Notes: generated by a model from the letters alone, not told the origin. A DNA stretch of 64,000 nucleotides from Candidatus Nanoarchaeia archaeon (GCA_035288965.1 DATDYQ010000104.1:10089-74088), one strand, 5' to 3'; shown: positions 42,928-64,000, numbered from the stretch's first letter. Program-made: numbers and translations.

Positions 42928-44037
42928 GTGATAGTAATGATAGAAAAAGAGATACCACAAGTTGATTTGAAAAGGCAATATCATTCTATTAAAAAAGAAA
43001 TAGATGAAGCTATATTTAACATAATTGAAAACACTTCTTTTATTAATGGAAAAGCAGTACAAGAATTTGAAGAGGATTTTGCCAAATTTTGTAATGCTAA
43101 ATATTGTATTGGTGTTAGTTCAGGAACAAGTGCAGTAGAAGTTGCATTACAAGCATCTGGAATTAAAGCAGGAGATGAAGTTATCACAGTTCCTAATACA
43201 TTTATTGCTACAACAGAAGCAATAACAAGATTGGGAGCTAAATTTAAATTTGTTGATATTGATGAAAAAACTTATACTATAGATATTAATCAAATTGAAA
43301 AGGCAATAACATCAAAAACAAAAGCGATCTTACCTGTTCAATTATATGGACAATCAAGTGAAATGGATAAAATAAAAGAGATAGCTGAAATTTTTAATTT
43401 AAAAGTTATAGAAGATTGCGCACAGGCTCATGGAGCTGAATATAATAATAAAAGATTGCCTTATTCTTTAGTTGGAACCTTTAGTTTTTTCCCAGCTAAA
43501 AATCTTGGAAGTTTTGGTGATGCAGGAGCTGTTGTTACAAATGATGAAGAGATAGCAAATAAAGCTAGATTATTAAAAGATCATGGTAGAACAGGAAAGT
43601 ATGTTCATGAAATTGAAGGTTATAATCATAGATTAGATACATTACAAGCAGCAATATTAAAAGTTAAGTTAAAGAAATTGGATGAATGGATTGAGAAAAG
43701 AAGAGAAAATGTTGCATTATATAATGAATTATTAAGTGATAATATAATAAAACCGATAGAAAGAGAAAACTCTAAGCATGTTTATTATGTTTATACGATA
43801 AGGGTAAAAAATAGAGATGGATTACAAAAATATTTGAAAGAAAATAAGATATCTTCTCAGATTTATTATCCTATACCATTACATTTACAACCAGCTTATT
43901 CTCATCTTGGTTATAAAAAAGGAGATTTTCCAGTAACAGAAAAAGTTTGTGATGAAATCTTATCATTACCTTTATTTCCCGAGTTAACTAAAGAAGAGAT
44001 TGAATATATTAGTGAGAAAGTTAATTCATTTATTTAA
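42928..44037 (+). CDS. DegT/DnrJ/EryC1-family PLP-dependent sugar aminotransferase
   Basis: 'DLKRQYHSIKKEIDEAI', 'GVSSGTSAVEVAL' and 'EDCAQAHGA'. Confidence 0.85.
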   Translation: MIVMIEKEIPQVDLKRQYHSIKKEIDEAIFNIIENTSFINGKAVQEFEEDFAKFCNAKYCIGVSSGTSAVEVALQASGIKAGDEVITVPNTFIATTEAITRLGAKFKFVDIDEKTYTIDINQIEKAITSKTKAILPVQLYGQSSEMDKIKEIAEIFNLKVIEDCAQAHGAEYNNKRLPYSLVGTFSFFPAKNLGSFGDAGAVVTNDEEIANKARLLKDHGRTGKYVHEIEGYNHRLDTLQAAILKVKLKKLDEWIEKRRENVALYNELLSDNIIKPIERENSKHVYYVYTIRVKNRDGLQKYLKENKISSQIYYPIPLHLQPAYSHLGYKKGDFPVTEKVCDEILSLPLFPELTKEEIEYISEKVNSFI

Positions 44038-44476
44038 TCATATCTATAAATTTTTTTCTATATATCTTAATATCTTCGTTATTTATTTTTGAAATAAAAT
44101 TAATTAATTTACTATTAAAAATTTCAGCTTTTCTTATGGTATCTTTTACATCTTCTTTAGTTACCACAAAATCAACATAATATTGTTTGTCTATTCTTTC
44201 TTTTTTAGCATCAAAAATTATAGAAGCAGAATGATTTTCAGATTTAATCCCAATTTTAAATAATAACGCAGTTAATAGATGATACATGCTATAATAGGCA
44301 AGTCCGACAGATTCTTCAAATTTATCATTATTCAGAAGAATTTTTGCAGAGATAAGATTGCTTTCAGATTTTATAATATAAGATTGTTTTAATTCTTCAC
44401 TTGATTCAACTAATTCTAATTTTCCTTGCTTACGAAGTTTCTTCAAAAAATTTATTTTTTTCATAATATGCTTCAA
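44030..44476 (-). CDS. HEPN-domain protein (toxin-like partner of the adjacent nucleotidyltransferase)
   Basis: Helical HEPN-like N-terminal region. It overlaps the upstream MNT gene by about 47 nt. Confidence 0.5.
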   Translation of the reverse strand: MKHIMKKINFLKKLRKQGKLELVESSEELKQSYIIKSESNLISAKILLNNDKFEESVGLAYYSMYHLLTALLFKIGIKSENHSASIIFDAKKERIDKQYYVDFVVTKEDVKDTIRKAEIFNSKLINFISKINNEDIKIYRKKFIDMIK

Positions 44477-44987
44477 TGCCTTTTATTACTACATGATTTT
44501 TTTCTATTTCTTTTATTAACAAATTAGATTTATCATATTTTCCTATTTTCACACTTAATTTTGAATCTATTGAATTAATATCTTCCCTTATTTTTTTGCT
44601 ATCTGTTTCAATATAAACATCAATATCGCTATTTACTTTAGCAATTTCCTTTGCATATGAACCAAATAAGATAGCAAGTTTTATATCTTTATTGGTTTGA
44701 ATTTTTTCTATTATTCTCCTTAAGCTTGGATATTTTTTTAATAATTTATTTAACTTATAATTTTCAGCAGAAAAAGCAAAACTTTTAGCTTCTATTGTTT
44801 TCTTTAAAAAATATTTATTGTTTTTTCCTTCTCTTTTGTAGTCTACAATATTTTCTTTATATAATTCTTTTATCTTTCTTACTATTATCATATGATTAGT
44901 ATTTAATCTTCTAGCAAGCTCCCTTATATGATATTCTGCATTAAGTAATTCATTTACGATTTCTAATTTGTAACTCTTTTGTTCCAT
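44430..44987 (-). CDS. Minimal nucleotidyltransferase (MNT) with an N-terminal wHTH
   Basis: 'LAILFGSYAKEIAKVNSDIDVYIETD' (GS-x9-DxD). Confidence 0.65.
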   Translation of the reverse strand: MEQKSYKLEIVNELLNAEYHIRELARRLNTNHMIIVRKIKELYKENIVDYKREGKNNKYFLKKTIEAKSFAFSAENYKLNKLLKKYPSLRRIIEKIQTNKDIKLAILFGSYAKEIAKVNSDIDVYIETDSKKIREDINSIDSKLSVKIGKYDKSNLLIKEIEKNHVVIKGIEAYYEKNKFFEETS

Positions 44988-48692: not shown

Positions 48693-50594
48693 ATGAATCA
48701 AAACAAAAAAAGAAGGATTTTTTTCTCACTAACAATATTTATTGTTTTTTTAGCAGCTTTATTCTTAGTACAAAAATTTAGTTTAGCAACAGTTACAATG
48801 GGAGCATTCCCAACATACAGTAATATTTCAACAAATAATACTAATTACAGAGGTACTGGTGGGGTAATGTACAACTTATCAAAAAACGGTGAACAACCAC
48901 TATTTAACATAACTATAATGAATAATGGTCCTGATCCAGTATATCAAATTTATATTAGGGTTCCTACAGACTATCTTATCACTCCCGGTACAAACATTAC
49001 TTTTTATAATACCAACCTGGCTATAGCTGGTGCAAGACTAAATGATAGTAATGTATCCATATCAAGTAATGCAACCGATATTAATATTTCATTTGTTAAA
49101 AGTCTACCAAATGCAATGAACTTAACTTCTGGAAGTAATCTTACATTTAACACAGTTATCAATGTAACTCAAATAACAGCAACAGAAAATGCATATATTT
49201 GGCAGGTAATTTTAATAGATAATGCATCTACCACTACTGATAGAACTATGAGAACTTTAATTGATGGATTAGCACCAAGAGTTTCAAATGTTAATGCAAC
49301 TGATGGTACTTATACAAAAAATTCAGGAGATTTGAATAATCGATCTCATCTTAAAGGACATGGTGGTTATGCTAATATTTCTATAACTGCCACAATAGCA
49401 GATATGAACTTAAATCCAATAAGAAACTCCAGTGTTAGACTTGTAATGGCAATCAATCATTCAGGAGCTGGGTCACTTCCAATAATAAGTAACGGAAATG
49501 GTTATCAAGGAACATTCTTTAAAGTATATAATATGAGTACTGTTTCAACACACTCACCTTATATCTATAATGTTACTATACCAACTGGACTATTAAACGG
49601 AACAAATCACACAAGCTTCTTTATAGTTGTGAATGACAGCTTAGGATATCAAACAAATGAAACAAATGGTGGAATTTACTATAATTTCACTATTGATGAC
49701 GATAATCCAAACACCCCAACAGTAACGCCAACACCTTCATCAACAACTACAAATAATGCAGTTTCAGTTGCATGCAGTGGTGGTGGAGATCCAACATCTA
49801 ATACAGTTACATATTCAATATCAGTAACTAAACCTAGTGGAGGAGTTTTAATATCAGCAATAAACCCATATCAATTCACAGATACTTCAGCAACAGGAAC
49901 ATATACAATTACATGTACAGCAGCAGACTCAACAGGACACTCAACAACCTCAAGCTCAGGTTCATTCACCGTTACTTATGATGGTGGTGGAGGCGGCGGT
50001 GGAGGGGGCGGAGGTTCTGGAGGAAGTTCAGGTTCAAGAGGAACAGTTCCATCACTAGCAGAATCAAGCACTGCTCAATTAACATTAAACACAGGTGAAG
50101 CTAAGATACTTGAACTAGGAAATAGTTTAGTACAAAGTGTAACATTAGCAGCAGGACAAAAAATAGCTACCTCAATTAAAGTAGAAGGTATACCTGCACC
50201 ATCTGTAGCTGGTTACAAGATAATTCAGGCATTCAAACTAGAAACATCAATAACAAGGTCGATGTTAAGTAGCAACCCTACAATTACATTTACCTGTCCA
50301 GAAAATGGTAAAAAGATATCTCTCTTAAGAGAAGAAAGTACAGGAAAGTGGAATAGTTATCCTGCTACAAGACTTGGATCTGGTAAATGTCAAGCTACAG
50401 TTCCAGGATTCTCAAACTTTGCAGTAGCAGAAGAAGCAACACCAGTAACTCAACCTACTAAAGCTCCAACAACACAACCTGCACCTGTACAAAAAGCGCC
50501 AGCAGCAACAACAGCAATAATTATAGTGATTATTATAATAGTCATTATAATCTTATTAATTGTAGCAATGACAAAGAAAAAAGGAAAGAAATAA
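48693..50594 (+). CDS. Surface glycoprotein candidate with a signal/anchor, dense N-x-S/T sequons, a poly-Gly linker and a C-terminal TM with a KKKGKK tail
   Basis: N-terminal hydrophobic segment, many NxS/T sequons, GGGGGGGGGGGSGGSSGS, and a C-terminal 'IIIVIIIIVIIILLIVAMTKKKGKK'. Confidence 0.6.
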   Translation: MNQNKKRRIFFSLTIFIVFLAALFLVQKFSLATVTMGAFPTYSNISTNNTNYRGTGGVMYNLSKNGEQPLFNITIMNNGPDPVYQIYIRVPTDYLITPGTNITFYNTNLAIAGARLNDSNVSISSNATDINISFVKSLPNAMNLTSGSNLTFNTVINVTQITATENAYIWQVILIDNASTTTDRTMRTLIDGLAPRVSNVNATDGTYTKNSGDLNNRSHLKGHGGYANISITATIADMNLNPIRNSSVRLVMAINHSGAGSLPIISNGNGYQGTFFKVYNMSTVSTHSPYIYNVTIPTGLLNGTNHTSFFIVVNDSLGYQTNETNGGIYYNFTIDDDNPNTPTVTPTPSSTTTNNAVSVACSGGGDPTSNTVTYSISVTKPSGGVLISAINPYQFTDTSATGTYTITCTAADSTGHSTTSSSGSFTVTYDGGGGGGGGGGGSGGSSGSRGTVPSLAESSTAQLTLNTGEAKILELGNSLVQSVTLAAGQKIATSIKVEGIPAPSVAGYKIIQAFKLETSITRSMLSSNPTITFTCPENGKKISLLREESTGKWNSYPATRLGSGKCQATVPGFSNFAVAEEATPVTQPTKAPTTQPAPVQKAPAATTAIIIVIIIIVIIILLIVAMTKKKGKK

Positions 50595-50621
50595 ATACTT
50601 TTTCTTTATCTCTTTTTTTAT

Positions 50622-51170
50622 ATGAAAACAATAATCACAATATTAATCTTATTATTAATATCTATAAACATCGTTTCTGCAAATAAAGTTATCGAACTTA
50701 ATGATATCTCTAATGGAACATTAAATAATCTTTATGTTAAACAAAGTGATGCTATCTTATTTACTCTTTTTGATCATGAACATGCAATTGTAATAAAGAA
50801 AATACAATACAAAGGTGTAGATATAGCAATTTTTCCATATAGAAATAATACGGTTTACACAACATTAAAAGAAAATGCTCGAACTTATATAGATCTAAAC
50901 AAGGATGAAGTAGATGATATATCTATTAGACTAATAAATTACAAAAATGGAACTGATGGTAATGCAATGATAAGATTTGCTGTTCTTAAGAATACAGAAA
51001 AAGAAAATACTGAAGATAACTCTTCATCAAGTGTTACTGGAAATGTTGTGAATAATGATATCAAAAAACCTAATAACAATCTTTTATTTATCTTTATACC
51101 AATGGTTATAATATTACTAGCATCATTAATATTCTTATTAAGAAAGAAAAATTTAAATACTAAGGAATAA
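50622..51170 (+). CDS. Small secreted, membrane-anchored protein
   Basis: N-terminal signal-like segment and a C-terminal TM with a basic tail. Confidence 0.45.
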   Translation: MKTIITILILLLISINIVSANKVIELNDISNGTLNNLYVKQSDAILFTLFDHEHAIVIKKIQYKGVDIAIFPYRNNTVYTTLKENARTYIDLNKDEVDDISIRLINYKNGTDGNAMIRFAVLKNTEKENTEDNSSSSVTGNVVNNDIKKPNNNLLFIFIPMVIILLASLIFLLRKKNLNTKE

Positions 51171-51186
51171 TTCAATTCTTAGGTGA

Positions 51187-53751
51187 ATGATGAATAAAAA
51201 GAGGATATTACTAAATATAGTGTTGTTGTCTATTTTATTTCTAGCAATTAAAGAAGTATCTGCGGTACAACTCAATATAACTTTTATTAATGGAACAACA
51301 TATCCAAGTTTTCAAATAGGAAATTTCTCAAGAAATTACACAATAACAATAAATGTTTCCAATGTAGGAATAAGTAACGCTACTCAACCATTAAATGTAA
51401 CTTTATTCATGCCTCGTGGTATTCAAAACAGTACGGCTGCTGATTGCGGTTTAGACTTCAGGATTATAAATGATACCACTTCTTCATGTACCCTTAATAT
51501 AACAAGAATGGGAGCAGGAGTTATGGACGTTGTTCCATCAAACGCAACAATAATTGCTATAAATGTTACAACCTCTGTTTCAGCATTTACAAATTATACA
51601 TCAATGATATTCACAGCTAAAGCTTATTGTGGAAATTGTACTGGAACAGCTAATGTAACACAAACAGTAAGCTTATCTGGGAATCCTTATTATAAAAATC
51701 CTCGTCCATATGTACGTGATTATTCTTCATTCGAAAACGCAACGTTCATCTTTGATTCATGGAGTCAAATTCGTCCTTACTATGAAGTTTGGGCTCCAAT
51801 GATGACATTTAACACAACATCAAATAAGACTCAACTTGCAAACTTATCATTTGCTGATATAATCTATGCAGATCTTCCATTTATACAGGGTCCAAACTAC
51901 ATGGAAATGTGGGGTTATAGATTAAATTTCACAATTAATTTTAATAACACTGGTGGTTTAGGAAATACAACATTTAGAGTTTATACTCCTATTGTTGATC
52001 CAACCTATCAAATACTTTTCCCATTGCTGTCAATGAATGTTTCAGCTCCAGGATTACAGGCAACCCGTTCATTTATAATGGCAGTTCCAAGCGCTTCTTC
52101 ATTTTCAGTTTGGTATAATGGAACAGAATATACATCTCAATCATTAAATGCAAATTTCTCTATTAATGTTGCTTACAATACAGGATATGGACAAGGTGCT
52201 GACTCAAACCCAGAAAAATATTTATTATTAAATGTATCCTCCCCATCAACTCGTGGAAATGTAAGTCTTTCAGTTATGTTCACATTATTCTCTAATGAAA
52301 CAGCTGCAAGAACAGTCTCTCCATTATATGTTCAAAGTCAGGTAGGTTCAGGATTTATGGGTGGCGATGCCCCTCCTGTAATTGGTGGAAATGTAAGTCT
52401 TAATTATTCATTATACGCAGTAAACCTACTTCCAAATTATACTTTAGATGATCTAAGGTTAAAATTCTTATCTCCCACTTCAGTTACAATAGTTAATACA
52501 AGTGCTACCTATAATCTAACAGATAACTTAAACGTTTCATGGCGCAACAGTAAAATAACTACCCGTTCATCTTGGGAGAGCATAATGAATATAATTACTA
52601 GTAATATATCATTTAGTCTTGTAGATAATCTTGCTGGCTCTCCGAATATTGGAAGAAATATAACTCTAAATTTCACATATTTCGAAATTAATCTAACAAA
52701 CAATACATTTAATAATTGGCTTCCAAATTCATCTTTATCAAATATAACTGTAAACATGTCTGGAATACTTAGATTCCCAACTTTAAATAAAACAGTATCA
52801 ATCCCATGTACTTCAGGTGCCCACAATCTATATAATCTTTCAGTTTCTATAAGTCAACAAGGTGCATTAAATTTAACAGATGATATAGGATCTTGCTTTA
52901 ATGCAACAGTTACAGATGTTATACTTAGAATAGATAATACAGTAATGACAAATGCAAGTAATTTTACTGTAGGCAGTTTGGTTGTGAATAGTATCGGTCA
53001 AGGAACTCATACTGTTTCGGTTTCATGGAAATCTCCAGCAGCAGCATCCTCTTCAACATCATCTACTTCATCAGCAACATCATCAGGCGGAACAACATCC
53101 TCTGCAGCTGCTCCAACCGAAAAAGAACATACAATTGTAATTACTGAATTTAAACCAAATGTTCCAGTAACAATAGCACAAGATTATCCTGAACTTCCAT
53201 TAAAAGAATTAGTAATAACAACAAATGATAAGGCATCAAGTGTTAAAATAACAACTAAAAATCTTGAAGCTCTTCCAAAAGATACATCTGCTCCAGAAGG
53301 AGTCTTTATTAATTCATATTTCAGTGTAGAAAAATCCAATTTAGATAATGCAAAAATTAAGTCCGTTGATCTTAAATTCCAAGTTACAAAAGCTTGGTTA
53401 ACAGAAAATATCGTCGATAAAAACGATATTATATTACAACACTTTACTGAAGGTTCATGGAAGAAATTATCTACAAAACTTATTAGCGAAACAGCAGATT
53501 ATGGGTTGTATGAAGCTACAACAGATGGTCTATCAACATTTGCTATAACTAGTAATAAAGCAGCTCCATCAGTTCCAGAAACAACTGGAGAAGTAACTAA
53601 AGATACAGAAAAAACGCAACCTCCAGCAACAATTAAAAAATCTCCAAGTTCTTCTACAATTATAATAATAACTCTTCTAGCAATAATTGCAATAATGTTA
53701 ATTGTTTATTTTATCCGAGTAGGTAAAAAACAACATAAAAATTATTTATAA
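51187..53751 (+). CDS. Large surface glycoprotein candidate (sequon-saturated, Ser/Thr-rich, C-terminal TM anchor)
   Basis: Signal-like N-terminus. About 15 N-x-S/T sequons in the first ~160 residues. A poly-Ser/Thr stretch. C-terminal 'IIIITLLAIIAIMLIVYFIRVGKKQHKNYL'. Confidence 0.6.
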   Translation: MMNKKRILLNIVLLSILFLAIKEVSAVQLNITFINGTTYPSFQIGNFSRNYTITINVSNVGISNATQPLNVTLFMPRGIQNSTAADCGLDFRIINDTTSSCTLNITRMGAGVMDVVPSNATIIAINVTTSVSAFTNYTSMIFTAKAYCGNCTGTANVTQTVSLSGNPYYKNPRPYVRDYSSFENATFIFDSWSQIRPYYEVWAPMMTFNTTSNKTQLANLSFADIIYADLPFIQGPNYMEMWGYRLNFTINFNNTGGLGNTTFRVYTPIVDPTYQILFPLLSMNVSAPGLQATRSFIMAVPSASSFSVWYNGTEYTSQSLNANFSINVAYNTGYGQGADSNPEKYLLLNVSSPSTRGNVSLSVMFTLFSNETAARTVSPLYVQSQVGSGFMGGDAPPVIGGNVSLNYSLYAVNLLPNYTLDDLRLKFLSPTSVTIVNTSATYNLTDNLNVSWRNSKITTRSSWESIMNIITSNISFSLVDNLAGSPNIGRNITLNFTYFEINLTNNTFNNWLPNSSLSNITVNMSGILRFPTLNKTVSIPCTSGAHNLYNLSVSISQQGALNLTDDIGSCFNATVTDVILRIDNTVMTNASNFTVGSLVVNSIGQGTHTVSVSWKSPAAASSSTSSTSSATSSGGTTSSAAAPTEKEHTIVITEFKPNVPVTIAQDYPELPLKELVITTNDKASSVKITTKNLEALPKDTSAPEGVFINSYFSVEKSNLDNAKIKSVDLKFQVTKAWLTENIVDKNDIILQHFTEGSWKKLSTKLISETADYGLYEATTDGLSTFAITSNKAAPSVPETTGEVTKDTEKTQPPATIKKSPSSSTIIIITLLAIIAIMLIVYFIRVGKKQHKNYL

Positions 53752-53756
53752 AAAAA
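53751..53756 (-). terminator. Oligo-T (T6 on the minus strand) immediately 3' of the tRNA
   Basis: A6 on the plus strand, directly after the tRNA discriminator base and abutting the TAA stop of the convergent gene. Confidence 0.35.
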
Positions 53757-53853
53757 CGCCGCAGCCAGGATTTGAACCTGGACATCCTTTCGGAAACCAG
53801 CTATCTTTCTCAAGACTCAAGGCTGGCGCCATACCAGATTAGGCGACTGCGGC
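53757..53853 (-). tRNA. tRNA-Ser (anticodon UGA) with a ~13-nt intron in the anticodon loop. No encoded CCA.
   Basis: The reverse complement folds as a 7-bp acceptor stem GCCGCAG/CTGCGGC plus discriminator G. D-arm is GCC-TAATCTGGTAT-GGC. Anticodon stem is CCAGC/GCTGG, with 20 nt between the halves (loop CTTGAG|A plus intron). There is a long variable arm (TCC-GAAA-GGA hairpin). T-arm is CCAGG-TTCAAAT-CCTGG. Confidence 0.75.
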
Positions 53854-53861
53854 ACAAAAAA

Positions 53862-53886
53862 TTAACGAATTTAACCTTTTTTAAAT
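53862..53886 (-). promoter_or_regulatory. Candidate BRE/TATA-like element about 15-30 nt upstream of the tRNA 5' end
   Basis: The minus-strand sequence reads ...AAAAAGGTTAAATTCGTTAATTTTTTGT|GCC. AT-rich background makes this weak. Confidence 0.25.
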
Positions 53887-53890
53887 CTTT

Positions 53891-54529
53891 TTAAAACACA
53901 GTCAACAAGTGCATTACTAATTTATCTGTAACTCTAAATAAATCTTTCCCGTCTTTTCCCTCTACAATAACACAATTTCCGTCAACTGTTATCTTGCTTT
54001 CATCTCCTAAAGTTAAAAGAATCACAGATTCTTCATTATTTGCATCTTTACATGTTTTCACAGGCAGCTCAAGTTCCTTTCCCCTATCTGTTTCCCTTGT
54101 TAATGCACTTATAGTATCAATTTTAAATACCCCATAATACGCCATTCCCGTTACTCTATTAGTTTCAACTATTGCCAAGACGCTCTCACTATCAGTTAAC
54201 TTTGGTAAATCAGGATCCTGAGTGATATAGATTTTTTCCTTTGCTTTATTTTCATTATATAAAATTACCTCTCTTGCTTTTTCATCCAATTTAATATCCT
54301 CTAGTTCTTTCGGGCTATGTCTGAATGGTATTAAGAATTTATTATTTCCAGAATAAGCTTCTAAAACATAATTTAATTCATTATCTGTTTTAACAACGTT
54401 AAATCTAAATTTTTCTCCTTGATCATTCTCCCAAGTAATCACACTCTTCTTATAATTAAAATAAAATATACTAGAAAAAAAAACTATACTAAAAATTAAC
54501 AACAATATCAAAAATGTTTTCGTTTTCAT
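53891..54529 (-). CDS. Hypothetical N-terminally anchored protein, paralogous to the next gene
   Basis: N-terminal TM. The C-terminal 'DGNCVIVEGKDGK' resembles 'EGNCFKIEGSIF' in the neighbour. Confidence 0.45.
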   Translation of the reverse strand: MKTKTFLILLLIFSIVFFSSIFYFNYKKSVITWENDQGEKFRFNVVKTDNELNYVLEAYSGNNKFLIPFRHSPKELEDIKLDEKAREVILYNENKAKEKIYITQDPDLPKLTDSESVLAIVETNRVTGMAYYGVFKIDTISALTRETDRGKELELPVKTCKDANNEESVILLTLGDESKITVDGNCVIVEGKDGKDLFRVTDKLVMHLLTVF

Positions 54530-55086
54530 ATTACACCTAATATTTTATAATTTATATAATCTATGTTGTTAGATATCTGAAATATGCTTCCTTCAATTTT
54601 AAAACAATTTCCTTCTTTACTAATAATATTCTTTTCATCATTAATTTTAAAATAAAATCCATTAACTTTGCTACAATCAACTATGGGCAATTCATTATCG
54701 CATTCTTTTTCATTCAAACAGGCTCTTAATCCTCCCTTTCCGGTCAATCTTAAAACTAATTCAAGTTTAGCTAGGCTATCTTCTATATCATTTTTACTAA
54801 AATCATATATAATGTAATTATTTCCAGTTAAACTTAAATCATTAACCTCATAACCTTTCAATTGATCTGGTAAATTATCGAAAACAAATTGTTGCCCGTT
54901 TATGCTCGTTACCCATCTTCCATTTACTAAATCAAATTTATATCCATTAATCTTTTTTGTTGTAGCCAAATTACTATTACTGTTTCCCTGTAAGGCAATA
55001 AATCCAAGTACGCTAGTTATCATAATTATCACTAAGAATAAAGTGATTAAAATCTTTGCAGTTTTTTTGTTATCTCTCATAATCAA
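54526..55086 (-). CDS. Hypothetical N-terminally anchored protein (paralogue)
   Basis: As above. The two genes overlap by 4 nt. Confidence 0.45.
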   Translation of the reverse strand: MIMRDNKKTAKILITLFLVIIMITSVLGFIALQGNSNSNLATTKKINGYKFDLVNGRWVTSINGQQFVFDNLPDQLKGYEVNDLSLTGNNYIIYDFSKNDIEDSLAKLELVLRLTGKGGLRACLNEKECDNELPIVDCSKVNGFYFKINDEKNIISKEGNCFKIEGSIFQISNNIDYINYKILGVI

Positions 55087-55208: not shown

Positions 55209-55772
55209 ATGGGAACATTAGATGATGCATTGTCAAGTCTACCTGATAGTAATATAACTTCTGGACAGGTTGTATATCCTGAATTTAATGAAGATATTGA
55301 AGCAATATATGATGATATTAAAAGGGAGTATGAATATGATGCTGCTGTATTCCCAAAGGTTTCAAAACGTTTCCTATTCTGGAATATAAAACGTGTTACA
55401 AGGGACAAAAAAGCTCTTGTTGCTTCAACTACGATGCAAAGAGTTAAAGTTACTGACAATGTTATTAATCTTTTAGAAAAAACTTTAGAAAGGAAAATTG
55501 ATTTTGGCACGATAAAAAGACCTGATTTAGAAAAATTTCTTGCATTTGAAGATTTAGATTTAACATATGATAATCTTGATTTAGAATTGATAGACGAAAA
55601 ATTAAAAAAAATTGGTTCGATCTTTTATATCTTCCCACATATTCAACCTGGATATGGTGGAGGTTATTTGGTTAATGGTGGCATTCATCTTAAAATATTG
55701 GGTTCTGCAATAAAAAACGGAGCTCAATATAATTATCTTAAATCAGAATTATCCAAAACATTAAAAATTTAA
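55209..55772 (+). CDS. Hypothetical protein whose N-terminal 'MGTLDDALSSLPDS' motif is shared with the ORF at 21911
   Basis: ORF. The shared N-terminal motif is seen directly. Confidence 0.45.
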   Translation: MGTLDDALSSLPDSNITSGQVVYPEFNEDIEAIYDDIKREYEYDAAVFPKVSKRFLFWNIKRVTRDKKALVASTTMQRVKVTDNVINLLEKTLERKIDFGTIKRPDLEKFLAFEDLDLTYDNLDLELIDEKLKKIGSIFYIFPHIQPGYGGGYLVNGGIHLKILGSAIKNGAQYNYLKSELSKTLKI

Positions 55773-55773
55773 T

Positions 55774-56463
55774 ATGGAAGATTTTTTAAAAAATTGCATA
55801 GATAATCTGCTAAAGGATTATTCTTCCATTGAAGCACTATATCTCTATGGTTCTTATATTAATGGTTATTATAAAAAAGACTCTGATATTGATTTAGTCG
55901 CTTTAACAAAGATTCATGCAAAAAATGATCCAATAAACTTTCCACCAAATATCAGTGTGCATATGGTAAATCCATCAGTAGTAGAATTTTTTGAATCTGG
56001 GATACCATACACTCATTTGAGAATGATTCCTGTTTACAACAAAGAGAAATGTGAAGAAATATCTGAAAGATTAAAATCAGAGTTAGTTAGACGAGAATTA
56101 ATAAGATTTAAAAGAAAGGGAATTTCTGATTTTTCAACATTAGACCCCATATATAACTACCTTCTTGGTTATGCCATTAAAAGACCTTGGCGCATAAAAC
56201 CTATAAAGAGAATATTCAAATCAGAAGAAACTAAACAAATTTTACATGCGGAATATAAAAATATTATGAATAAACTAGAAAAAAGGGGAATGATAAAACA
56301 TTCTGGAGATATTTATACCATAAACAAGAATTTTGTTTTTGATGGGGAATCAGCTACAGAATTAAAAGATTCTTTCCAATATAAGGTAAAGAACTCAGAT
56401 TATGGTATTTATTATTTACTTTGTTTACCTTCTATGTTAGAATTTTCGCTAAAACGAATTTGA
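55774..56463 (+). CDS. Pol-beta-superfamily nucleotidyltransferase-domain protein
   Basis: 'LYLYGSYINGYYKKDSDIDLV' (GS-x9-DxD). Confidence 0.55.
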   Translation: MEDFLKNCIDNLLKDYSSIEALYLYGSYINGYYKKDSDIDLVALTKIHAKNDPINFPPNISVHMVNPSVVEFFESGIPYTHLRMIPVYNKEKCEEISERLKSELVRRELIRFKRKGISDFSTLDPIYNYLLGYAIKRPWRIKPIKRIFKSEETKQILHAEYKNIMNKLEKRGMIKHSGDIYTINKNFVFDGESATELKDSFQYKVKNSDYGIYYLLCLPSMLEFSLKRI

Positions 56464-56704: not shown

Positions 56705-59047
56705 TTAAGCAACTGTTATTCCGCTAAGGTCTAATGAAGTTCCTGTTACGGTAACTGATGTCTTTCCAGACAATAAGGCTTTTATGTTTGCATCATCGTA
56801 GTTAGCTAACACTACACCAGCTCTTCTAGTGTCTGCTGCTTCCCAGCCTGCTGCAACCAATGCCCAGTTTGCTCCATTAGCTTTCAACTGGATAACTGCT
56901 GTGTCCTGTGCTATTCCAGATGCTGCTCCACATGATCCAGCTGCAACTCCAAGTAAACTTGCTGTTACACTGTTAACACATGGTCCACCAACTGAGATTA
57001 CATTCCAAGAAGCTATGTTTGTTACTTGACTTGCTTTCTTTGGTGTTGGTGCTGTTGTTGTTACACTTGGTGTTTCATCTCCAGAAACTTCTGTTCTAGT
57101 TCCACCGACCTTTGCGATTCCCTGTACTAAATCGCTTGGTATCATTAAGTGTACTCTATCACTTGAACCTTGGCTATCTGGGTTTTCGATGATAACTCCA
57201 AATTTTGTTCTATGGTTTTCATCCTTTGCACCAAGAAGAGTACAAGTAACTCCTGTTGGGCACCAAGATACATCTATTCCCTCAGCTGTACTTCCGCCAG
57301 CAGTTGCTCCAAGTGTTCTAAATTTACCCCCACTTAAAGCCCAAGTTGTGGTTATATTTTCTGTTTCAGCAAAGTCTGTTGTTTCTAACAATCTTAATGT
57401 AATATTGTAGTGCCCTGTTGTTGTTTGGTTTACTGCATTTAAATGCAATTGTGCGTTATTGTTCTTTGTATCTCCAAAGTTTACGTGTGCAAACTTAGTA
57501 GACATATTTCCTTGAACTCCTTCACCACCTTCTGGATCACTTATATTACCTGCATACACTATATCTTTTACATCGTTATCATAGTAAAACAACATAGTTG
57601 CGTTGTGTCTTGCATCAAGTACATCTGTGTAGAAATAAATATCTTTAGTCTTCTTTTCTGTAGTTACATTATTGTCTGCCCAGTTTCTAGAAGTTCCATC
57701 GCTATCTGCATCTACCACTAAACCTTCTGATTGGTCTGTGTAAATGTGTACAGCTTGTGCACTAGAAGGTACTCCTGCGATACCTGCAACAGATAAATCT
57801 GCACTAGATAGATATTCAAACCACAAATCCATGTAATCATCATCTGCTACATTTAATTTATCATAACAGACGCTTACATAATTTTCTGGGTATGAAATAC
57901 ATTCTCCAGCTGCAACAGCTCCTCTAGCTTTAGTATCTCTTAAGAAGTTATTTCTAACTCCAAATTTAATACCTCCAACATAGATTCCTGAGTTGTTGTT
58001 TACAATGCTTGTAGCCGAATTACTCGTTAATGCACCGATGTCCCATTTCCAATCTGGACTTTGTTCTGGTTCTCCAATATAAGAGTCTCCATTTTTATAG
58101 GTCTTTGTAGCTTCTTTTCCAACAATAAGTGTAGCTGATCTTTCAGCTGTTGTATCAGAATAGAATGTTTCATCTACTTTGACGTCAAGTCCGTTTACGG
58201 TTTCTGTACTTCCACCGCTTACAGATTCTTGAACACCATCGACACTTAAGATTACAGATTGTGGGCTTGTTCCAGATGCTACATTGTTTAATGTAACTGT
58301 CTTTCCATCAACTACAATACTTTCTCCAACTTTTAAGAAGTATTCAGCTCCTACATTTGCTGTAAATTGTGTTGCAGATATGGTTGTTATCTTTAATTTT
58401 CTTCCCAAGAAATTTAATTCTAATGGGTAGTTTGTATTTACTGGATTTGCTGAGTCGCTTAAGTTAATGGCTTCATCAAATGCATAGTAGTAATACAATC
58501 CATTTCTTGGTATTTCTAAGAAAATTCCATCTTTATAATCGTCTTCGCCACTTGTCAAGCTTGTCTGGAATGCTGTTCCATTACTTAGGGCATTTATCAC
58601 AACATGTTCGCTAATATCATATTGTGAACTTCTCCAGTTCATTTCTGTGTCAAGTAAGCTTTTTATATCTCCATCGTCTAAGTCTGCATCTATCTGGTTT
58701 GTAGTTGTTAAAGCAACTCCAAGAGGAATATCTTCTTCAACACCACCTGTTATTGTGGTTTTTGTTACAGTTCCTCCGCCTCCACCGCTTCCAGAAGTTA
58801 CAGATCCAGCAATTTTATTAGAAATAGCTGTTAAAGCTACATTATCTTCTGATGCTGCTGTATCACCAAAGACATAAGCTAAATTTTGGTATTTCCCATC
58901 CATAACAAATGGTTTTGGGTAATCACCTAATGTGTAACTTGCTGCTAAAGCTCCGCTCATCGTAGCTCCGAGCATTGCTACACCTGCTCCGACAGCTGCT
59001 ATTTTTCTAATTGCTGTCTTCGCTTTTATCGCAAAGTTTTCTTGCAT
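56705..59047 (-). CDS. S-layer-like major surface protein. The likely start is the ATG at 59047, whereas the ORF track begins at a GTG at 59059.
   Basis: Signal peptide MQENFAIKAKTAIRKIAAVGAGVAMLGATMSGALAA. 'VMDGKYQNLAYVFGDTAASEDNVALTAISNKIAGS' resembles the Methanococcales S_layer_N pattern. C-terminal Cys-containing domain. Markedly GC-richer codon usage. SD GGAGGTG sits 9 nt upstream. Confidence 0.7.
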   Translation of the reverse strand: MQENFAIKAKTAIRKIAAVGAGVAMLGATMSGALAASYTLGDYPKPFVMDGKYQNLAYVFGDTAASEDNVALTAISNKIAGSVTSGSGGGGGTVTKTTITGGVEEDIPLGVALTTTNQIDADLDDGDIKSLLDTEMNWRSSQYDISEHVVINALSNGTAFQTSLTSGEDDYKDGIFLEIPRNGLYYYYAFDEAINLSDSANPVNTNYPLELNFLGRKLKITTISATQFTANVGAEYFLKVGESIVVDGKTVTLNNVASGTSPQSVILSVDGVQESVSGGSTETVNGLDVKVDETFYSDTTAERSATLIVGKEATKTYKNGDSYIGEPEQSPDWKWDIGALTSNSATSIVNNNSGIYVGGIKFGVRNNFLRDTKARGAVAAGECISYPENYVSVCYDKLNVADDDYMDLWFEYLSSADLSVAGIAGVPSSAQAVHIYTDQSEGLVVDADSDGTSRNWADNNVTTEKKTKDIYFYTDVLDARHNATMLFYYDNDVKDIVYAGNISDPEGGEGVQGNMSTKFAHVNFGDTKNNNAQLHLNAVNQTTTGHYNITLRLLETTDFAETENITTTWALSGGKFRTLGATAGGSTAEGIDVSWCPTGVTCTLLGAKDENHRTKFGVIIENPDSQGSSDRVHLMIPSDLVQGIAKVGGTRTEVSGDETPSVTTTAPTPKKASQVTNIASWNVISVGGPCVNSVTASLLGVAAGSCGAASGIAQDTAVIQLKANGANWALVAAGWEAADTRRAGVVLANYDDANIKALLSGKTSVTVTGTSLDLSGITVA

Positions 59048-59322: not shown

Positions 59323-59757
59323 TCATTTTTCGCAGATTTTTAGTTTGATTTCTAGCTCATTAACAAAGTAAGGACTAGAACTTATTCCTTGCTCACATTT
59401 CCCGAGATTAAAGCAACTTTTATCTTCATTTTTGATTTCTAGCAAATAATTGCTTGTTATTGTTTTATCAAAGATTGATTTAGCTTCTTTTTCTAAAAAA
59501 TCGCAAGCATTCTGTCCGCAAAAATCGCTATTTTCACAACAATTTTTCATAGCTTCTTTTAAATTACTATCACAACTGCTAGCTTTAACTAAAGCATTAA
59601 CTAGATTATTTGCTTTTATGCTATTCAATGTATTATCCTGATTACTTTCAACTTTAGTTATGCTAAATCTTAAAGCAACAATTCCTATTATAATTATGAG
59701 TAATAATACAACTGTTATTCCAATCATATCAATCTGCCCTTTACCCATACCATTCAA
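59323..59757 (-). CDS. Prepilin-like protein with a class III (type IV pilin-like) signal peptide
   Basis: MNGMGKGQ|IDMIGITVVLLLIIIIGIVA. Confidence 0.5.
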   Translation of the reverse strand: MNGMGKGQIDMIGITVVLLLIIIIGIVALRFSITKVESNQDNTLNSIKANNLVNALVKASSCDSNLKEAMKNCCENSDFCGQNACDFLEKEAKSIFDKTITSNYLLEIKNEDKSCFNLGKCEQGISSSPYFVNELEIKLKICEK

Positions 59758-60250
59758 CCTCTAAAACACCTATTTTATACAAATTATCATTAGGATAAAA
59801 TATAGATATTGGAGTACTTACTTTCTTAACACTATCTGCATTAATTGATCCTGCTTCATATAAATCAAATATTCCACAATCTCTTATGTTTCCTTTTTGA
59901 CATATCTCTTCATTAGTTTCAGGGTAGATAACTTTAACAGTTAATTTACTCGCTCCAAATTCTTTTTTATACTCGCTAGAAACTTGGCTAAAAGCTACTA
60001 ATTTTAAAGCATCCAAACAATCTTCTTCTTGTTTATTACTCGTACATTTAAATTCAGCCATGTTTGGCAAATTATTTGTTAGTAAACTAAATCTTTCATC
60101 ATTAAATTTAACATTTTCATTCTTTATGCTTTCTGTAGTAAATCTGTAATAGAAAATAAAAGCTATCATGAAAATAACTACAAAAACAATTAAAACTAGC
60201 ATCGTTTCCTGAATCTGCAATTGTCCTCTTTTTAGTAAATTGTTATGCAT
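59741..60250 (-). CDS. Prepilin-like protein with a class III signal peptide
   Basis: MHNNLLKRGQ|LQIQETMLVLIVFVVIFMIAFIF. Confidence 0.6.
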   Translation of the reverse strand: MHNNLLKRGQLQIQETMLVLIVFVVIFMIAFIFYYRFTTESIKNENVKFNDERFSLLTNNLPNMAEFKCTSNKQEEDCLDALKLVAFSQVSSEYKKEFGASKLTVKVIYPETNEEICQKGNIRDCGIFDLYEAGSINADSVKKVSTPISIFYPNDNLYKIGVLEVEWYG

Positions 60251-61161
60251 CCCTCTCTCCCCAATCTATTATTCTGTTCATCAAGCTCTTTTTCATATAA
60301 ACTCAACAAATCATATTTTTTTTCTTCTATATCATCATTAATTTGATAAAATATGTTACTTGGATAACTACATTTTTTGTCAATCAAATTTGTCCTTTCA
60401 AGATAAATTTTGTTAATTAATCTTATTTTATTGATAGCTTCATTAAATCCGCAATTATAATTATCATTGTTGCTAAATATTGCTGCATATAAAAATTCTT
60501 CATTAAGGTAGGCTATTTCTTCAGATTCTAGAGGATAATTTTCACTTTCTTTAGGCACTGTTGGCATTTTTTGTCCAAAAGAAATTGTTTCTTTATCTAA
60601 ATTAATCACAATATGTTCATAATTCCATAGTGATTGTCGATTTATATTAAAAAAAGCTATAATCTTTGCATCTTCACCAATATCAACTAAACTCTCTGTT
60701 TTTATTACATTAATCTGTTTAGGAATGTCATCTATCAGTTTATCAACAAAATCTTCACTTTTTTTATTATAAAGAAAAACATATTCTTTATCTAAATCAG
60801 CAAAGTAAATAAGATTAGTAATAGGATAAGGGAAATTTAATCTTTTTACCCAAACAAATGCCTTCTCATTAACAGTATCTGCAAATAATATTTTATCATC
60901 AAAGCTTTGACTAAACTCTCCCAAACTTATTTCATTGCAATTAATTTCAACATCTTTACTTCCGATATTTATTTCAGTATACAAATTATTATTATTTAAT
61001 CCATTAATGCCATTATTCAAGCTTCTCACAATATTGGCTTGCTCTCTTTTATCTTGTAATGATTTATATCTTATTCCAAATCCAGCAAAAAATATTAATA
61101 ATATAATTCCAGCAACTAAAATAAAAATCCAGTTAAACTGATAATCTTGTCCTTTTTTCAT
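60232..61161 (-). CDS. Prepilin-like protein with a class III signal peptide
   Basis: MKKGQ|DYQFNWIFILVAGIILLIFFAGF. Confidence 0.6.
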   Translation of the reverse strand: MKKGQDYQFNWIFILVAGIILLIFFAGFGIRYKSLQDKREQANIVRSLNNGINGLNNNNLYTEINIGSKDVEINCNEISLGEFSQSFDDKILFADTVNEKAFVWVKRLNFPYPITNLIYFADLDKEYVFLYNKKSEDFVDKLIDDIPKQINVIKTESLVDIGEDAKIIAFFNINRQSLWNYEHIVINLDKETISFGQKMPTVPKESENYPLESEEIAYLNEEFLYAAIFSNNDNYNCGFNEAINKIRLINKIYLERTNLIDKKCSYPSNIFYQINDDIEEKKYDLLSLYEKELDEQNNRLGREGCITIY

Positions 61162-61640
61162 CTACTAACACTTACATAATCTCCCTTATTCTCTAAAGTT
61201 ATTCTCATATCAGTTACACATAATGGATTTTCTATTGGTTTAATATGTTCAACAAAAAATCTAACTTTACTCAAGCTTTGTCCTCTCTGTGGAACAAAAA
61301 ATAAATTATTTTGGCTTCCCGAATCTAAAGAATCTCTAACAACTTGATCTATTAATTCATCATCAATTATATCATTTAATGGCATATCAACATCAACAAA
61401 ACAAATCTCTCGAACTTTGCTTGGTAATATTATATCATCTAATTTTATTGAACTTCCTTTATCTAAACTATAAACATCATTAACTTTATTTTTAATGCCA
61501 TCAATAAATAAAACAATCTGCCCTTCATCACCCAAATCTTTAAAATTTTTTATTGCTCTATATCCAAATATTACTATCAAACCAATAACAACAATCGCAA
61601 AGATATAAATAAAAATTAACTGATTCTGCCCCTTTTTCAT
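61158..61640 (-). CDS. Prepilin-like protein with a class III signal peptide
   Basis: MKKGQ|NQLIFIYIFAIVVIGLIVIFGY. Confidence 0.6.
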   Translation of the reverse strand: MKKGQNQLIFIYIFAIVVIGLIVIFGYRAIKNFKDLGDEGQIVLFIDGIKNKVNDVYSLDKGSSIKLDDIILPSKVREICFVDVDMPLNDIIDDELIDQVVRDSLDSGSQNNLFFVPQRGQSLSKVRFFVEHIKPIENPLCVTDMRITLENKGDYVSVSR

Positions 61641-61680
61641 ATTTTAAAAAGATTAAACTTTAAATATAAAACTTTCTATC

Positions 61681-62049
61681 TTACAAAGCATCTCTTATCC
61701 TATATCTACCAACCTCCAATACAACGATTTTACCGATTAAATTATTTTCTCCAATATTAACTAAGAAATTTTTTAATATTTTTAAAACTTTATCTGGGGT
61801 AAAATTATTAGGTAATCTTATTATAATCAATCCATAGTGTGTTCCTTTAGGATATAAAATGAAACTACCAAATTCTAGATCTTTAGTGATCAAGATAGAT
61901 TTTTGTTTCTTGGCATAGGTTGCTATATCTTTATCGGTTGCTCCTGTTAAACCAACATTCGCAACATGTTGGGTTTCAAATCCAATATTTCTAAGTTCTA
62001 TAGCAAATGATCTTGGAATATTTTCATCTAAAAAAATTTTCATGTTCAC
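61681..62049 (-). CDS. DUF5615-family PIN-like (Mut7-C-type) putative toxin
   Basis: 'MKIFLDENIPRSFAIELRNIGFETQHVANVGLTGATDKDI...ILITKDLEFG' matches the DUF5615 consensus pattern. Confidence 0.75.
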   Translation of the reverse strand: MNMKIFLDENIPRSFAIELRNIGFETQHVANVGLTGATDKDIATYAKKQKSILITKDLEFGSFILYPKGTHYGLIIIRLPNNFTPDKVLKILKNFLVNIGENNLIGKIVVLEVGRYRIRDAL

Positions 62050-62264
62050 GCATGTATCCGACTTATCTTCTCACCTTTAATCATAGAAGAAGCATATTTA
62101 ATAACTGTAAGTACTTGTTCTTTTGTAATCCCATATTCTTTTTTTATTTCATCATAATCCATACCACTTTCTAGCATCCCGAGTACTTCATCTACTGTTA
62201 TTCTAGTTCCTTTTATTATAGGTTTTCCATGACGTATATTTTTATCAATTGTAATTTTTGCCAT
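62046..62264 (-). CDS. DUF433-domain putative antitoxin. The likely start is the internal ATG giving MAKITID, whereas the ORF track extends to 62303.
   Basis: 'RHGKPIIKGTRITVDEVLGMLESGMDYDEIKKEYGITKEQVLTVIKYA' is the classical DUF433 motif. It overlaps the DUF5615 gene by 4 nt. Confidence 0.7.
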   Translation of the reverse strand: MAKITIDKNIRHGKPIIKGTRITVDEVLGMLESGMDYDEIKKEYGITKEQVLTVIKYASSMIKGEKISRIHA

Positions 62265-62443
62265 ATTTATTAAAAGGTAAGTTAAATATATAAGCTTTAT
62301 CATTCATAAAAATTATATGTTAGAAAAGAAGAAAACAGGTGAAGGACTAGAAAAATATTTTGGACTAATAAAAGATGATAAAGAATCTGTTAAGTTAACG
62401 GAAGAATTAAAAAAAGGTTGGAAAAGATGGACCAAAAGATATT

Positions 62444-64000
62444 CTAAGGATAAACAGTAAAGCTAGCTTCATTTTCAAATCTATCTCTGCATATTATATA
62501 ATAAGCATTATTTTCGTCTAAGGCAGCCTTATGTAACTTGCTATCATCATCTGGCATTCTATTTCCATTTCCAAAACTAAATGGTAAATTATTATATTCG
62601 CAAATTGAATCTTCATCCATCTCAACATATAATCTAGTTGAATCAGTATAAATCTTCTTAACACTTGGTGGAATTTCATCAATTTCTACGGTAAAATTAG
62701 TCCTTCCTATAGCTTCATTTCCCGCTATATCTCTACACCAAACTTTAGGATCATAATATCCTTTTTGTAATCCAACAAATTCATAACTATGTTCAGTTGA
62801 ATTTGTTGCATCAAACTTAGTACTTCCAGGGTCAAAATAATCATTAAATGTCCAATAACAATTTGCTCTTCCTTCTTCCGCCCCTCTTACTGTAGTTGTA
62901 GTTAAATTAAATCTCTTGTCAAATATTGTTCCACTAGGTTCAACATTAGTAATGTTTAATGCTCTTGAAACAAATAAATGCAATCCTCCTGCAGGATAAC
63001 TTGCATCTCTATTTACATTTCCATTAATGTCTTGACATCTGAAATAATAAACATTATCTTGTTCATTCTGTAATCCGCCTAATATTCCACCACAAGCATA
63101 TAATCTTCCATAAATTGTATCTATTCTTGAATCTCCGCAACTTAAATTGTTCAACATCTTTTGATAACTTTCATCTTTACTTGAATATTTACATCCGCCA
63201 TTCGCAATTAATTCACTTTCATCATCAACATAAGCAGCTATTGTAATATTCTTGGTATTAAATTTCAACTTGGCATTATTTATGATATTAAATCCTTTCA
63301 CAATTGGACTTCCTGTATCTGGACCTTTAGCAATTGTAAATCCAATTTTATAATCACTTCCTGTAACAATCTCCCTATTATTTTCATCTGTATTTGCACT
63401 TTTACATCTAACATATAAATCATAATCTCCTGAATCACTTATTGCAATTATATCATCTTCAGCCTCATTTATTATCGGAACTGTAAATATATGTTCTTTT
63501 TTGTATTGATTATCTCCAAAGAAATCGCTCATTCTATTATATTCAACAACAGAATCACTTCCTAAACTTCTTTCTTTGCTTACCTTACATTGACTTATTT
63601 TATCTGTTTTAATTCCAATCTGTAAATCTCTATATTCTTGTTCTCCACTTATAACATACCCATTAGCTTGTGTTTGAATATCCTCATTTGTTATAGGATC
63701 AACAGCCAATGGGTTTATTACAGGAGCAATAACATCTCCTTTGTTTACCCAAGTACAAGTTTCATTTCCACTTCCTTTATTTAATAATTGACAACTTTGT
63801 CCTAAACTAGTGCATTTATAATCATCACATTTTTCATAATCAGTATTGCATTTTTCGCAATCATTTCCGCCAGCAGGAGCAACATAAGGATCACAGCTTA
63901 TTGTGTAAGTTAATGTTTTTGTAGCTGAGAAAAAATATGTAATCAAGAAATATACAGCAAATGCAGATAATACAACTATAACAATTGGATTAGAAAGGAA
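62444..64000 (-). CDS. Partial (5' end beyond the window) large Cys-rich extracellular protein with an N-terminal hydrophobic segment
   Basis: The frame is open to the window edge (…FLSNPIVIVVLSAFAVYFLITYFF…). The 'M' in the ORF track is a TTG. Numerous Cys pairs (CDPYVAPAGGNDCEKCNTDYEKCDDYKC). Confidence 0.5.
   Translation of the reverse strand, partial: FLSNPIVIVVLSAFAVYFLITYFFSATKTLTYTISCDPYVAPAGGNDCEKCNTDYEKCDDYKCTSLGQSCQLLNKGSGNETCTWVNKGDVIAPVINPLAVDPITNEDIQTQANGYVISGEQEYRDLQIGIKTDKISQCKVSKERSLGSDSVVEYNRMSDFFGDNQYKKEHIFTVPIINEAEDDIIAISDSGDYDLYVRCKSANTDENNREIVTGSDYKIGFTIAKGPDTGSPIVKGFNIINNAKLKFNTKNITIAAYVDDESELIANGGCKYSSKDESYQKMLNNLSCGDSRIDTIYGRLYACGGILGGLQNEQDNVYYFRCQDINGNVNRDASYPAGGLHLFVSRALNITNVEPSGTIFDKRFNLTTTTVRGAEEGRANCYWTFNDYFDPGSTKFDATNSTEHSYEFVGLQKGYYDPKVWCRDIAGNEAIGRTNFTVEIDEIPPSVKKIYTDSTRLYVEMDEDSICEYNNLPFSFGNGNRMPDDDSKLHKAALDENNAYYIICRDRFENEASFTVYP

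Follow-up and report, generated by a model that had tools for sequence, protein, structure and literature searches.

Among archaeal type IV filaments, the Epd pilins of Methanococcus maripaludis are processed at the sites KGQV, KGQL, KGQI, and RAQI; the peptidase EppA needs Gln at +1, whereas FlaK refuses Gln at this position (PMC4371748). One of these pilins, EpdE, is glycosylated (PMC4371748). Clade 1 systems comprise five or more minor pilins together with large adhesins, and their major pilins are small (~70 amino acids), stand-alone, and often multi-copy (paralogous) (PMC4858521); system 1 has been reported in some DPANN archaea (bioRxiv 10.64898/2026.04.22.720090). Here we describe a cassette of four pilin-like genes (A, B, C, and D) in a 64,000-nucleotide stretch of DNA from Candidatus Nanoarchaeia archaeon (GCA_035288965.1 DATDYQ010000104.1:10089-74088), which as a whole is called the window. 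The cassette belongs to a conserved six-gene operon that also encodes a giant Cys-rich protein (BIG) and a further pilin-like protein (P259). It is probable, in our view, that A–D, together with P259, are the accessory or priming minor-pilin set of an Epd-like (clade 1 / system 1) type IV filament, with BIG as its adhesin.

Four minus-strand open reading frames (ORFs) lie between positions 59323 and 61640 (Table 1), each with a short basic leader, K/R-G-Q, and then ~20 hydrophobic amino acids. An earlier sequence-only reading of the window had recognized these consecutive, overlapping ORFs and their K/R-G-Q N-termini, and its positions hold. Its size range of 144-309 amino acids needs adjustment at the lower end: the most likely start of gene D is the ATG at 59748 (141 amino acids), because GAGGT is located 10 nt upstream and public gene calls also give 141 amino acids, and the TTG at 59757 (144 amino acids) is less favored. 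The overlaps along A-B-C-D in the window are 4, 19, and 8-17 nt. Ahead of gene A, ~25-30 nt before its ATG and on the downstream side of a toxin-antitoxin (TA) insertion discussed below, is the sequence AAAGTTTTATATTT, which may be a TATA-type promoter. A regular-expression scan for the motif in all ORFs of at least 60 amino acids in the window found one clean N-terminal case besides A–D (33652-34617), and the remaining two matches sit within annotated genes. This additional gene, on the plus strand and within the glycan-biosynthesis island described below, encodes 321 amino acids, begins in a class III-like manner (MSLEKLVKG-LGITLGVGFGILGF), and weakly matches a right-handed β-helix (E 0.0016).

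Conservation of the motif was examined among relatives of the 309-amino acid protein B, which a scan of one genome per species found in 204 genomes. We retrieved 80 loci, subjected them to our own ORF calling and clustering, and counted families over 83 non-redundant species-level loci containing B. Upstream of the hydrophobic segment, the motif [K/R]-[G/A/S]-Q is kept in ~65-79 orthologues per family while the remainder of the protein diverges. Position -1 is G, A, or S in about equal shares. Q occupies +1 in 92-97% of members (54/59 in A, 64/68 in C, 60/62 in D, and 31/32 in P259), and family B has Q or F there. All four window proteins and P259 have G at -1 and Q at +1. N-terminally anchored families from the same loci (the 186- and 212-amino acid proteins) served as a control and carry the motif in only 4 of 26 members, which argues that the motif is not a by-product of the positive-inside rule. 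Two families have an acidic amino acid within the hydrophobic helix, namely an invariant E at +6 in C and a near-invariant E/D at +3 in D, and each of the heads of A–D has conserved Cys. The conservation of the motif, its match to the Epd processing sites, and the helix-plus-head models described next support the earlier view that A–D carry EppA/Epd-type signal peptides of class III (prepilin-type).

AlphaFold2 models were obtained for B (8 sequences; pLDDT 76.9, pTM 0.73) and C (110 sequences; pLDDT 87.2, pTM 0.70). B is modeled as a helix (amino acids 5-56) followed by a β-rich domain and a C-terminal helical bundle, and C as a helix (4-63), a second helix (81-98), and four main β-strands. 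An N-terminal helix of 52-60 amino acids bearing a β-rich head would give the lollipop shape typical of type IV pilins, the fold being assigned by topology only. Foldseek searches of the PDB with the two models returned no match below E~0.1 (none better than E=0.2 for B), and the top matches, to BRCT domains and RNA polymerase II, were dismissed as noise. Profile comparison by hhalign among A, C, and D relates C to D over the N-terminal ~65 amino acids (probability 95%); A shares with C and with D only the KK[G/A/S]Q leader.

The gene order P259 - BIG - A - B - C - D recurs in Woesearchaeota/Nanoarchaeota, in about 65-83 of the 83 loci. B is present in all 83 loci by definition of the sample, C and BIG in 72 each, D in 68, A in 66, and P259 in 36, the last number being limited by contig ends. 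Family A is always directly upstream of B (66 loci). Median intergenic distances are -4 nt from P259 to BIG, -4 from BIG to A, +3 from A to B, +1 from B to C, and -4 from C to D, and these small values indicate a single translationally coupled operon. The six genes form a conserved ancestral operon in about 80 related species. Orthologues are mostly 22-35% identical to the window proteins, and family C comprises 1379 representatives at 50% identity. A Pacearchaeote locus (L095:9231-14873) has a P259-like gene (257 amino acids), a gene for a giant protein (1306 amino acids), and a second P259-like gene (263 amino acids) beside PCNA and without A–D, so the operon appears to have been built from two separable sub-modules. 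Literature searches found no account of the cassette in Woesearchaeota.

BIG is cut by the end of the window, as the sequence-only reading had noticed for a Cys-rich protein of more than 500 amino acids truncated at its 5' end. The hydrophobic segment that had been placed at its N-terminus is internal. In the full-length protein, the N-terminus is a Sec-type signal (MKKIKAIFMIVILLVATIFGASLFSNNVEAQ), followed by a ~650-amino acid Cys-rich ectodomain, one strong hydrophobic segment by hydropathy (amino acids ~689-707 of 1201), predicted to lie in the membrane, and a ~490-amino acid Cys-rich domain with weak Ig-like matches; there are 62 Cys in total. BIG had been suspected of being a fifth pilin-like protein, which the Sec-type N-terminus and internal segment rule out. 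The actual fifth pilin-like gene is P259, directly upstream of BIG and beyond the window, which encodes 259 amino acids starting MNKRGQ-VTIFILLGLLIIAIIGLVYF. Several of the 88 homologues of BIG, all of them unnamed, have Ig-like domains (PF19077, PF15418, or PF07495), as would suit a protein at the cell surface. No DUF2341 or PilY1 β-propeller domain was found in full-length BIG, the only matches being sub-threshold ones to Y_Y_Y and Big_13.

The stop codon of BIG lies within 20 nt of the gene A start, or overlaps it, in 39 of 52 genomes. In the window, these genes are separated by a TA pair that had been recognized beforehand and that Pfam confirms (DUF433, E 2.4e-20; DUF5615/PIN-like, E 6.1e-25), the two genes overlapping by 4 nt. 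The same DUF433 and DUF5615 genes occupy the junction in one other locus (L070), and the junction lacks any insert in five genomes (gap -8 to +8 nt; L010, L017, L019, L047, and L064). Different TA or small genes are inserted in L014, L036, L062, and L055: VapB and PIN on the opposite strand in L014, which is an 85%-identical relative, PIN_2 in L062, and Bro-N in L055. AR20 has a 77-amino acid gene with PIN at the junction. The TA pair is a secondary insertion into the ancestral six-gene operon and does not belong to the pilin system; its presence at the junction varies, and we rejected it as a functional part of the locus. As an observation in its own right, the BIG-A junction (61641-62443 in the window) is a recurrent landing site of small mobile gene pairs.

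Downstream of D, the loci fall into two architectures. Class I comprises 15 loci, among them the window and AR20 (complete genome, CP010426); here D is followed by a ~218-nt gap, an S-layer protein gene, and genes for two anchored paralogues. In Class II, the majority, D is followed by arrays of ~92-amino acid proteins (family c7) and by further class III families. Family c7 occurs in 30 loci, in up to three tandem copies, with the consensus MKKKAQ-GLSINVIIIAAIALIVLVVL and a Cys-rich tail; a protein of this type downstream of D (L065:12146-12421) starts MNKKGQ-SISINTIIIAAIGLAVLVVL and likewise has a Cys-rich tail. Being small, multi-copy, and stand-alone, the c7 proteins agree with what has been described for clade 1 major pilins (PMC4858521), and they are likely to be the major pilins of the system in sister lineages. 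A search with the c7 profile found no homologue in the six frames of the window. The S-layer gene adjoins D in 15 of 83 loci, with a median gap of 218 nt; it is a conserved downstream neighbor in one clade and probably a separate transcription unit. Given adjacency in these 15 loci only, it was rejected as a core member of the module.

Some of the pilin-like families are also distinguished by a strong depletion of N-X-S/T sequons. Relative to shuffled sequences, the observed/expected ratio is 0.18 in family A, 0.33 in B, 0.09 in c6, and 0 in c7 (22 expected), as compared with 1.16 in the S-layer protein, 0.89 in BIG, and 1.08 in the anchored 186- and 212-amino acid paralogues. The A–D proteins of the window have no sequon at all despite an Asn content of 6-11% (joint shuffle probability ~3e-4). 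This depletion suggests selection against N-glycosylation of these subunits.

If A–D and P259 are minor pilins with BIG as the adhesin, the locus might work as follows. An EppA-like class III signal peptidase would cut off the short basic leader between G/A/S and Gln. The mature protein would have a ~55-amino acid N-terminal helix, its hydrophobic half in the membrane, and a disulfide-bonded β-rich head outside. P259 and BIG, encoded just upstream and partly beyond the window, would complete the six products of one ancestral, translationally coupled operon, the pilin-like proteins forming a heteromeric minor-pilin set and BIG, anchored in the membrane, being presented as an adhesin. Elsewhere in the genome there would have to be genes for the ATPase, the platform protein, the peptidase, and, probably, the major pilin; the TA pair would be a later insertion and the S-layer gene a lineage-specific neighbor. 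We infer the minor-pilin and adhesin roles from the clade 1 models, the presence of system 1 in DPANN archaea, and the analogy to bacterial minor pilins and PilY1.

Like the Epd pili of M. maripaludis (EpdA-E, EppA), the locus combines a leader followed by K/R-[G/A]-Q, with Gln at +1, and five accessory pilin-like proteins of differing size. Unlike in the Epd system, Ser is common at -1, and the cassette is never beside the ATPase, two platform genes, or eppA that belong to the Epd 11-gene cluster. Clade 1 / system 1 filaments resemble it in having a large putative adhesin in the locus and, in related loci, small (~70-90 amino acids) multi-copy putative major pilins, as well as in the occurrence of system 1 in DPANN; unlike clade 1 adhesins, BIG has no DUF2341 or PilY-like domain. 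An analogy may also be drawn to bacterial minor-pilin complexes (FimU-PilVWXE with PilY1, GspHIJK of the type II secretion system, and ComGD-GG; partly PMC4858521), in which 4-5 different pilin-like genes occur in overlapping frames. As in bacterial minor-pilin/PilY1 operons, a non-pilin surface protein of more than 1000 amino acids, here BIG, is encoded alongside, and, as among bacterial minor pilins, some members (A and B) lack the acidic amino acid of the helix while others (C and D) have it. The resemblance does not extend to sequence or to Foldseek similarity, the leader follows the archaeal rule of Q rather than F/M at +1, and BIG has a Sec signal and a membrane segment. The sugar-binding proteins of the Sulfolobus bindosome similarly have a class III-type leader and sizeable globular domains and are encoded away from the assembly ATPase. 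The present locus differs from theirs in having no substrate-binding-protein domain, no ABC transporter nearby, and an EppA-like Gln at +1 rather than a PibD-like site.

Several observations weigh against a minor-pilin set serving a type IV filament. Scanned against all of Pfam-A and NCBIfam, A–D have no match (E≤1) to a family of pilins or of class III signals. These scans cover the Pfam Class_IIIsignal (DUF361), archaeal Pilin_N, and NCBIfam TIGR02537-type models; the sequence-only reading had pointed to the first and last of these as a check, and the same lack of a match sets the proteins apart from the Epd pilins and their models. Among the proteins of the locus, only the TA pair and the S-layer protein had matches in these scans. 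A scan of 110 members of family C likewise gave no meaningful Pfam match and no pilin family (E≤0.01), and profiles of families A–D against PDB sequences gave nothing below E=0.07. Because they lack a match to the curated pilin models, A–D are new, widespread families outside the curated pilin families and within the known archaeal class III / type IV pilin-like kind. In our own re-implementation of the FlaFind 1.2 motif, [KRDE][GA][ALIFQMVED][ILMVTAS] plus an H-domain (PMC4307647), C, D, and P259 pass, and the amino acid at +2 is the sole reason for the failure of A (KGQN) and B (KGQD), so that only two of the four proteins pass this check, which had also been proposed beforehand. Family-wide, 30-63% of members pass the strict motif, and 85-96% do so if Ser is allowed at -1 and +2 is left free.

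The assembly machinery gives a further argument of this kind. The earlier statement that the window holds no assembly ATPase, platform protein, or peptidase is borne out: no T2SSE/PilB, TadC/PilC, or A24 peptidase domain was found in its 64 kb. The ATPase, TadC, and A24 peptidase are equally absent from the 15 kb past position 64000, where a look upstream for eppA and pilB/pilC had been advised, and from ~1450 ORFs of 80 related neighborhoods, which were searched for a PilB-type Walker A motif and the A24 GxGD motif. Walker A matches in L034 and L059 look MCM-like by eye, and the others were dismissed as PilB on length alone. Since no assembly genes are linked, the tie to type IV machinery is purely inferential, which is the main weakness of the assignment. 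Finally, the sequon depletion in several pilin-like families departs from the characterized glycosylated pilins of archaea, such as the Epd pilins.

Other arrangements of the same proteins have to be weighed. Tentatively, and with low confidence, P259-BIG-A-B-C-D might be a Woesearchaeota-wide, self-contained host-contact module, in which five unglycosylated pilin-like proteins would form a stalk or tip of fixed stoichiometry that presents BIG through or at the S-layer. It would then be an attachment or uptake device built from pilins rather than a conventional long pilus.

It is unlikely that the proteins, processed or not, stay membrane-anchored and form with BIG a non-filament envelope complex, for example a scaffold or short pseudopilus in the space beneath the S-layer. 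Such a complex could anchor the S-layer, open it locally, or act as a bindosome-like assembly. In 15 species the cassette is directly upstream of the S-layer gene and the two anchored proteins, as this would predict, and S-layer-like proteins in archaeal type IV pilus loci have been noted in the literature. This adjacency is, however, limited to one clade, whereas most loci have arrays of small pilin-like genes, and the ~218-nt gap between D and the S-layer gene makes separate transcription probable. An envelope complex would also account for the lack of a linked assembly ATPase in the genomes examined. The depletion of sequons in A, B, c6, and c7, and not in the S-layer protein or BIG, fits buried or tightly packed proteins, but tightly packed filament subunits are equally expected to be depleted.

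We find it quite unlikely that the cassette is a self-contained pilin set in which one of A–D, most likely the small A or D, is the major subunit and the others are minor pilins or adhesins. This is close to the major pilin plus minor pilins that the sequence-only reading suggested. The sizes do differ (141-309 amino acids), and a major subunit needs a source, there being no c7-type pilin in the window or, within the S-layer-linked clade, close to the cassette. Yet A–D are single-copy genes with a fixed order and translational coupling, from which a similar dosage follows; they are distinct families, of which only C and D share the N-terminal 65 amino acids; and most lineages have, after the cassette, the tandemly duplicated 92-amino acid family, which is a better fit for the major pilin. 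All four look like minor pilins. Highly improbable is the view that these are ordinary signal-anchor or Sec-signal proteins whose K/R-G-Q only flanks a transmembrane helix on its positive-inside end and escapes class III cleavage altogether: the missing pilin profile matches, the two of four strict FlaFind failures, and the lack of an identified peptidase agree with it, but it does not explain why, in ~80 species, five or six head families that are unrelated to one another are restricted to a small amino acid at -1 and Q at +1, nor the rarity of this pattern in the anchored control families, nor why the conserved motif precedes rather than follows the hydrophobic core, why the hydrophobic segment runs on into a ~55-amino acid helix in the models, and why the sites equal the experimentally verified Epd sites.

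Table 1. Features of the pilin-like cassette and its neighbors in the window
Feature	Coordinates	Strand	Description
Pilin-like gene A	61640-61158	-	160 amino acids, MKKGQ-NQLIFIYIFAIVVIGLIVIF; leader MKKG, predicted cleavage between G and Q, hydrophobic α1-N; 2 near-invariant Cys
Pilin-like gene B	61161-60232	-	309 amino acids, MKKGQ-DYQFNWIFILVAGIILLIFF; leader MKKG, predicted cleavage before Q; QFNWIFILVAG segment highly conserved; largest head, 3 invariant Cys
Pilin-like gene C	60250-59741	-	169 amino acids, MHNNLLKRGQ-LQIQETMLVLIVFVVIFMIAF; leader MHNNLLKRG, predicted cleavage before Q; invariant Glu at +6 (mature numbering), 2 conserved Cys
Pilin-like gene D	59748-59323	-	141 amino acids, MGKGQ-IDMIGITVVLLLIIIIGIV; leader MGKG, predicted cleavage before Q; acidic amino acid at +3 conserved, 6 conserved Cys
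BIG (C-terminal 518 amino acids)	62444..64000	-	cut by window end; full protein 1193-1201 amino acids, read from public contigs with identical genes
TA pair	61681..62303	-	DUF433 antitoxin-like gene 62046-62303 (or 62264); DUF5615/PIN-like toxin gene 61681-62049
S-layer protein gene	56705..59047	-	780 amino acids from ATG at 59047; PF05124 S_layer_C, E 1.3e-9; GGAGGTG 12 nt before ATG
Two paralogous N-terminally anchored proteins (186 and 212 amino acids)	53891..55086	-	after S-layer gene in same clade; class III motif lacking

Proteins identical to those of the window are deposited as hypothetical proteins of Candidatus Nanoarchaeia archaeon, their relatives come from metagenome-assembled genomes of Woesearchaeota/Nanoarchaeota, and the source organism is a Woesearchaeota-type DPANN archaeon. 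The G+C content is 24-35% per 2-kb segment of the stretch, mostly 27-33%. The 15 kb past position 64000 hold only housekeeping genes, with TrmB, PCNA, a TFIIS-like protein, CTP synthase, and RNA polymerase subunit L among the products. Upstream of the operon, PCNA is a neighbor that recurs.

Beyond the S-layer gene, the unannotated secreted or anchored proteins encoded at 48693-53751 (plus strand) and 53891-55086 (minus strand), of 633, 182, 854, 212, and 186 amino acids, are conserved neighbors of the S-layer gene in its clade. The 48693-55086 block is opposite in orientation elsewhere (e.g., L027 and L035) and so appears to be inverted in the window, with a tRNA at its boundary. This tRNA (53757-53853, minus strand) has an Rfam match of 47.8 bits and was missed by ARAGORN; it spans 97 nt as compared with a model of 71 positions, and therefore probably contains an intron. 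Two more gene pairs are of the nucleotidyltransferase type (44030-44987, minus strand, and 55209-56463, plus strand). One is HEPN with MNT. The other, a 187-amino acid gene with a 229-amino acid NTP_transf_2/Polbeta gene, is an insertion that separates the S-layer gene from the downstream partners conserved with it; L010 and L014 lack it there. A glycan and nonulosonic-acid biosynthesis island, very large given the small genome, occupies positions 1-48 kb. It has two NeuB domains and two CMP-sugar transferase domains, NanE, a UDP-GlcNAc 2-epimerase-like gene, and a DHDPS-like lyase; it also contains many GT2/GT4/GT9 glycosyltransferases, two PMT_2 proteins, three B12-binding radical SAM enzymes, and flippases.

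Members of the Woesearchaeota and of related DPANN lineages, which are ultra-small and have not been cultivated, presumably depend on hosts. The operon defines five unnamed pilin-like families and a giant surface protein as a conserved unit, none of these families having a Pfam model, and extends the Gln+1 (EppA-type) pilin signature well beyond methanogens and Thermococci. As to annotation, a number of large hypothetical-protein families can now be labeled as pilin-like with a predicted class III signal, which is useful for the study of DPANN surface biology. The operon supplies concrete candidates for the apparatus by which these archaea may attach to partner cells. Should it prove to be a self-contained host-contact module, it would be a conserved organelle for the engagement of partner cells by episymbiotic archaea.

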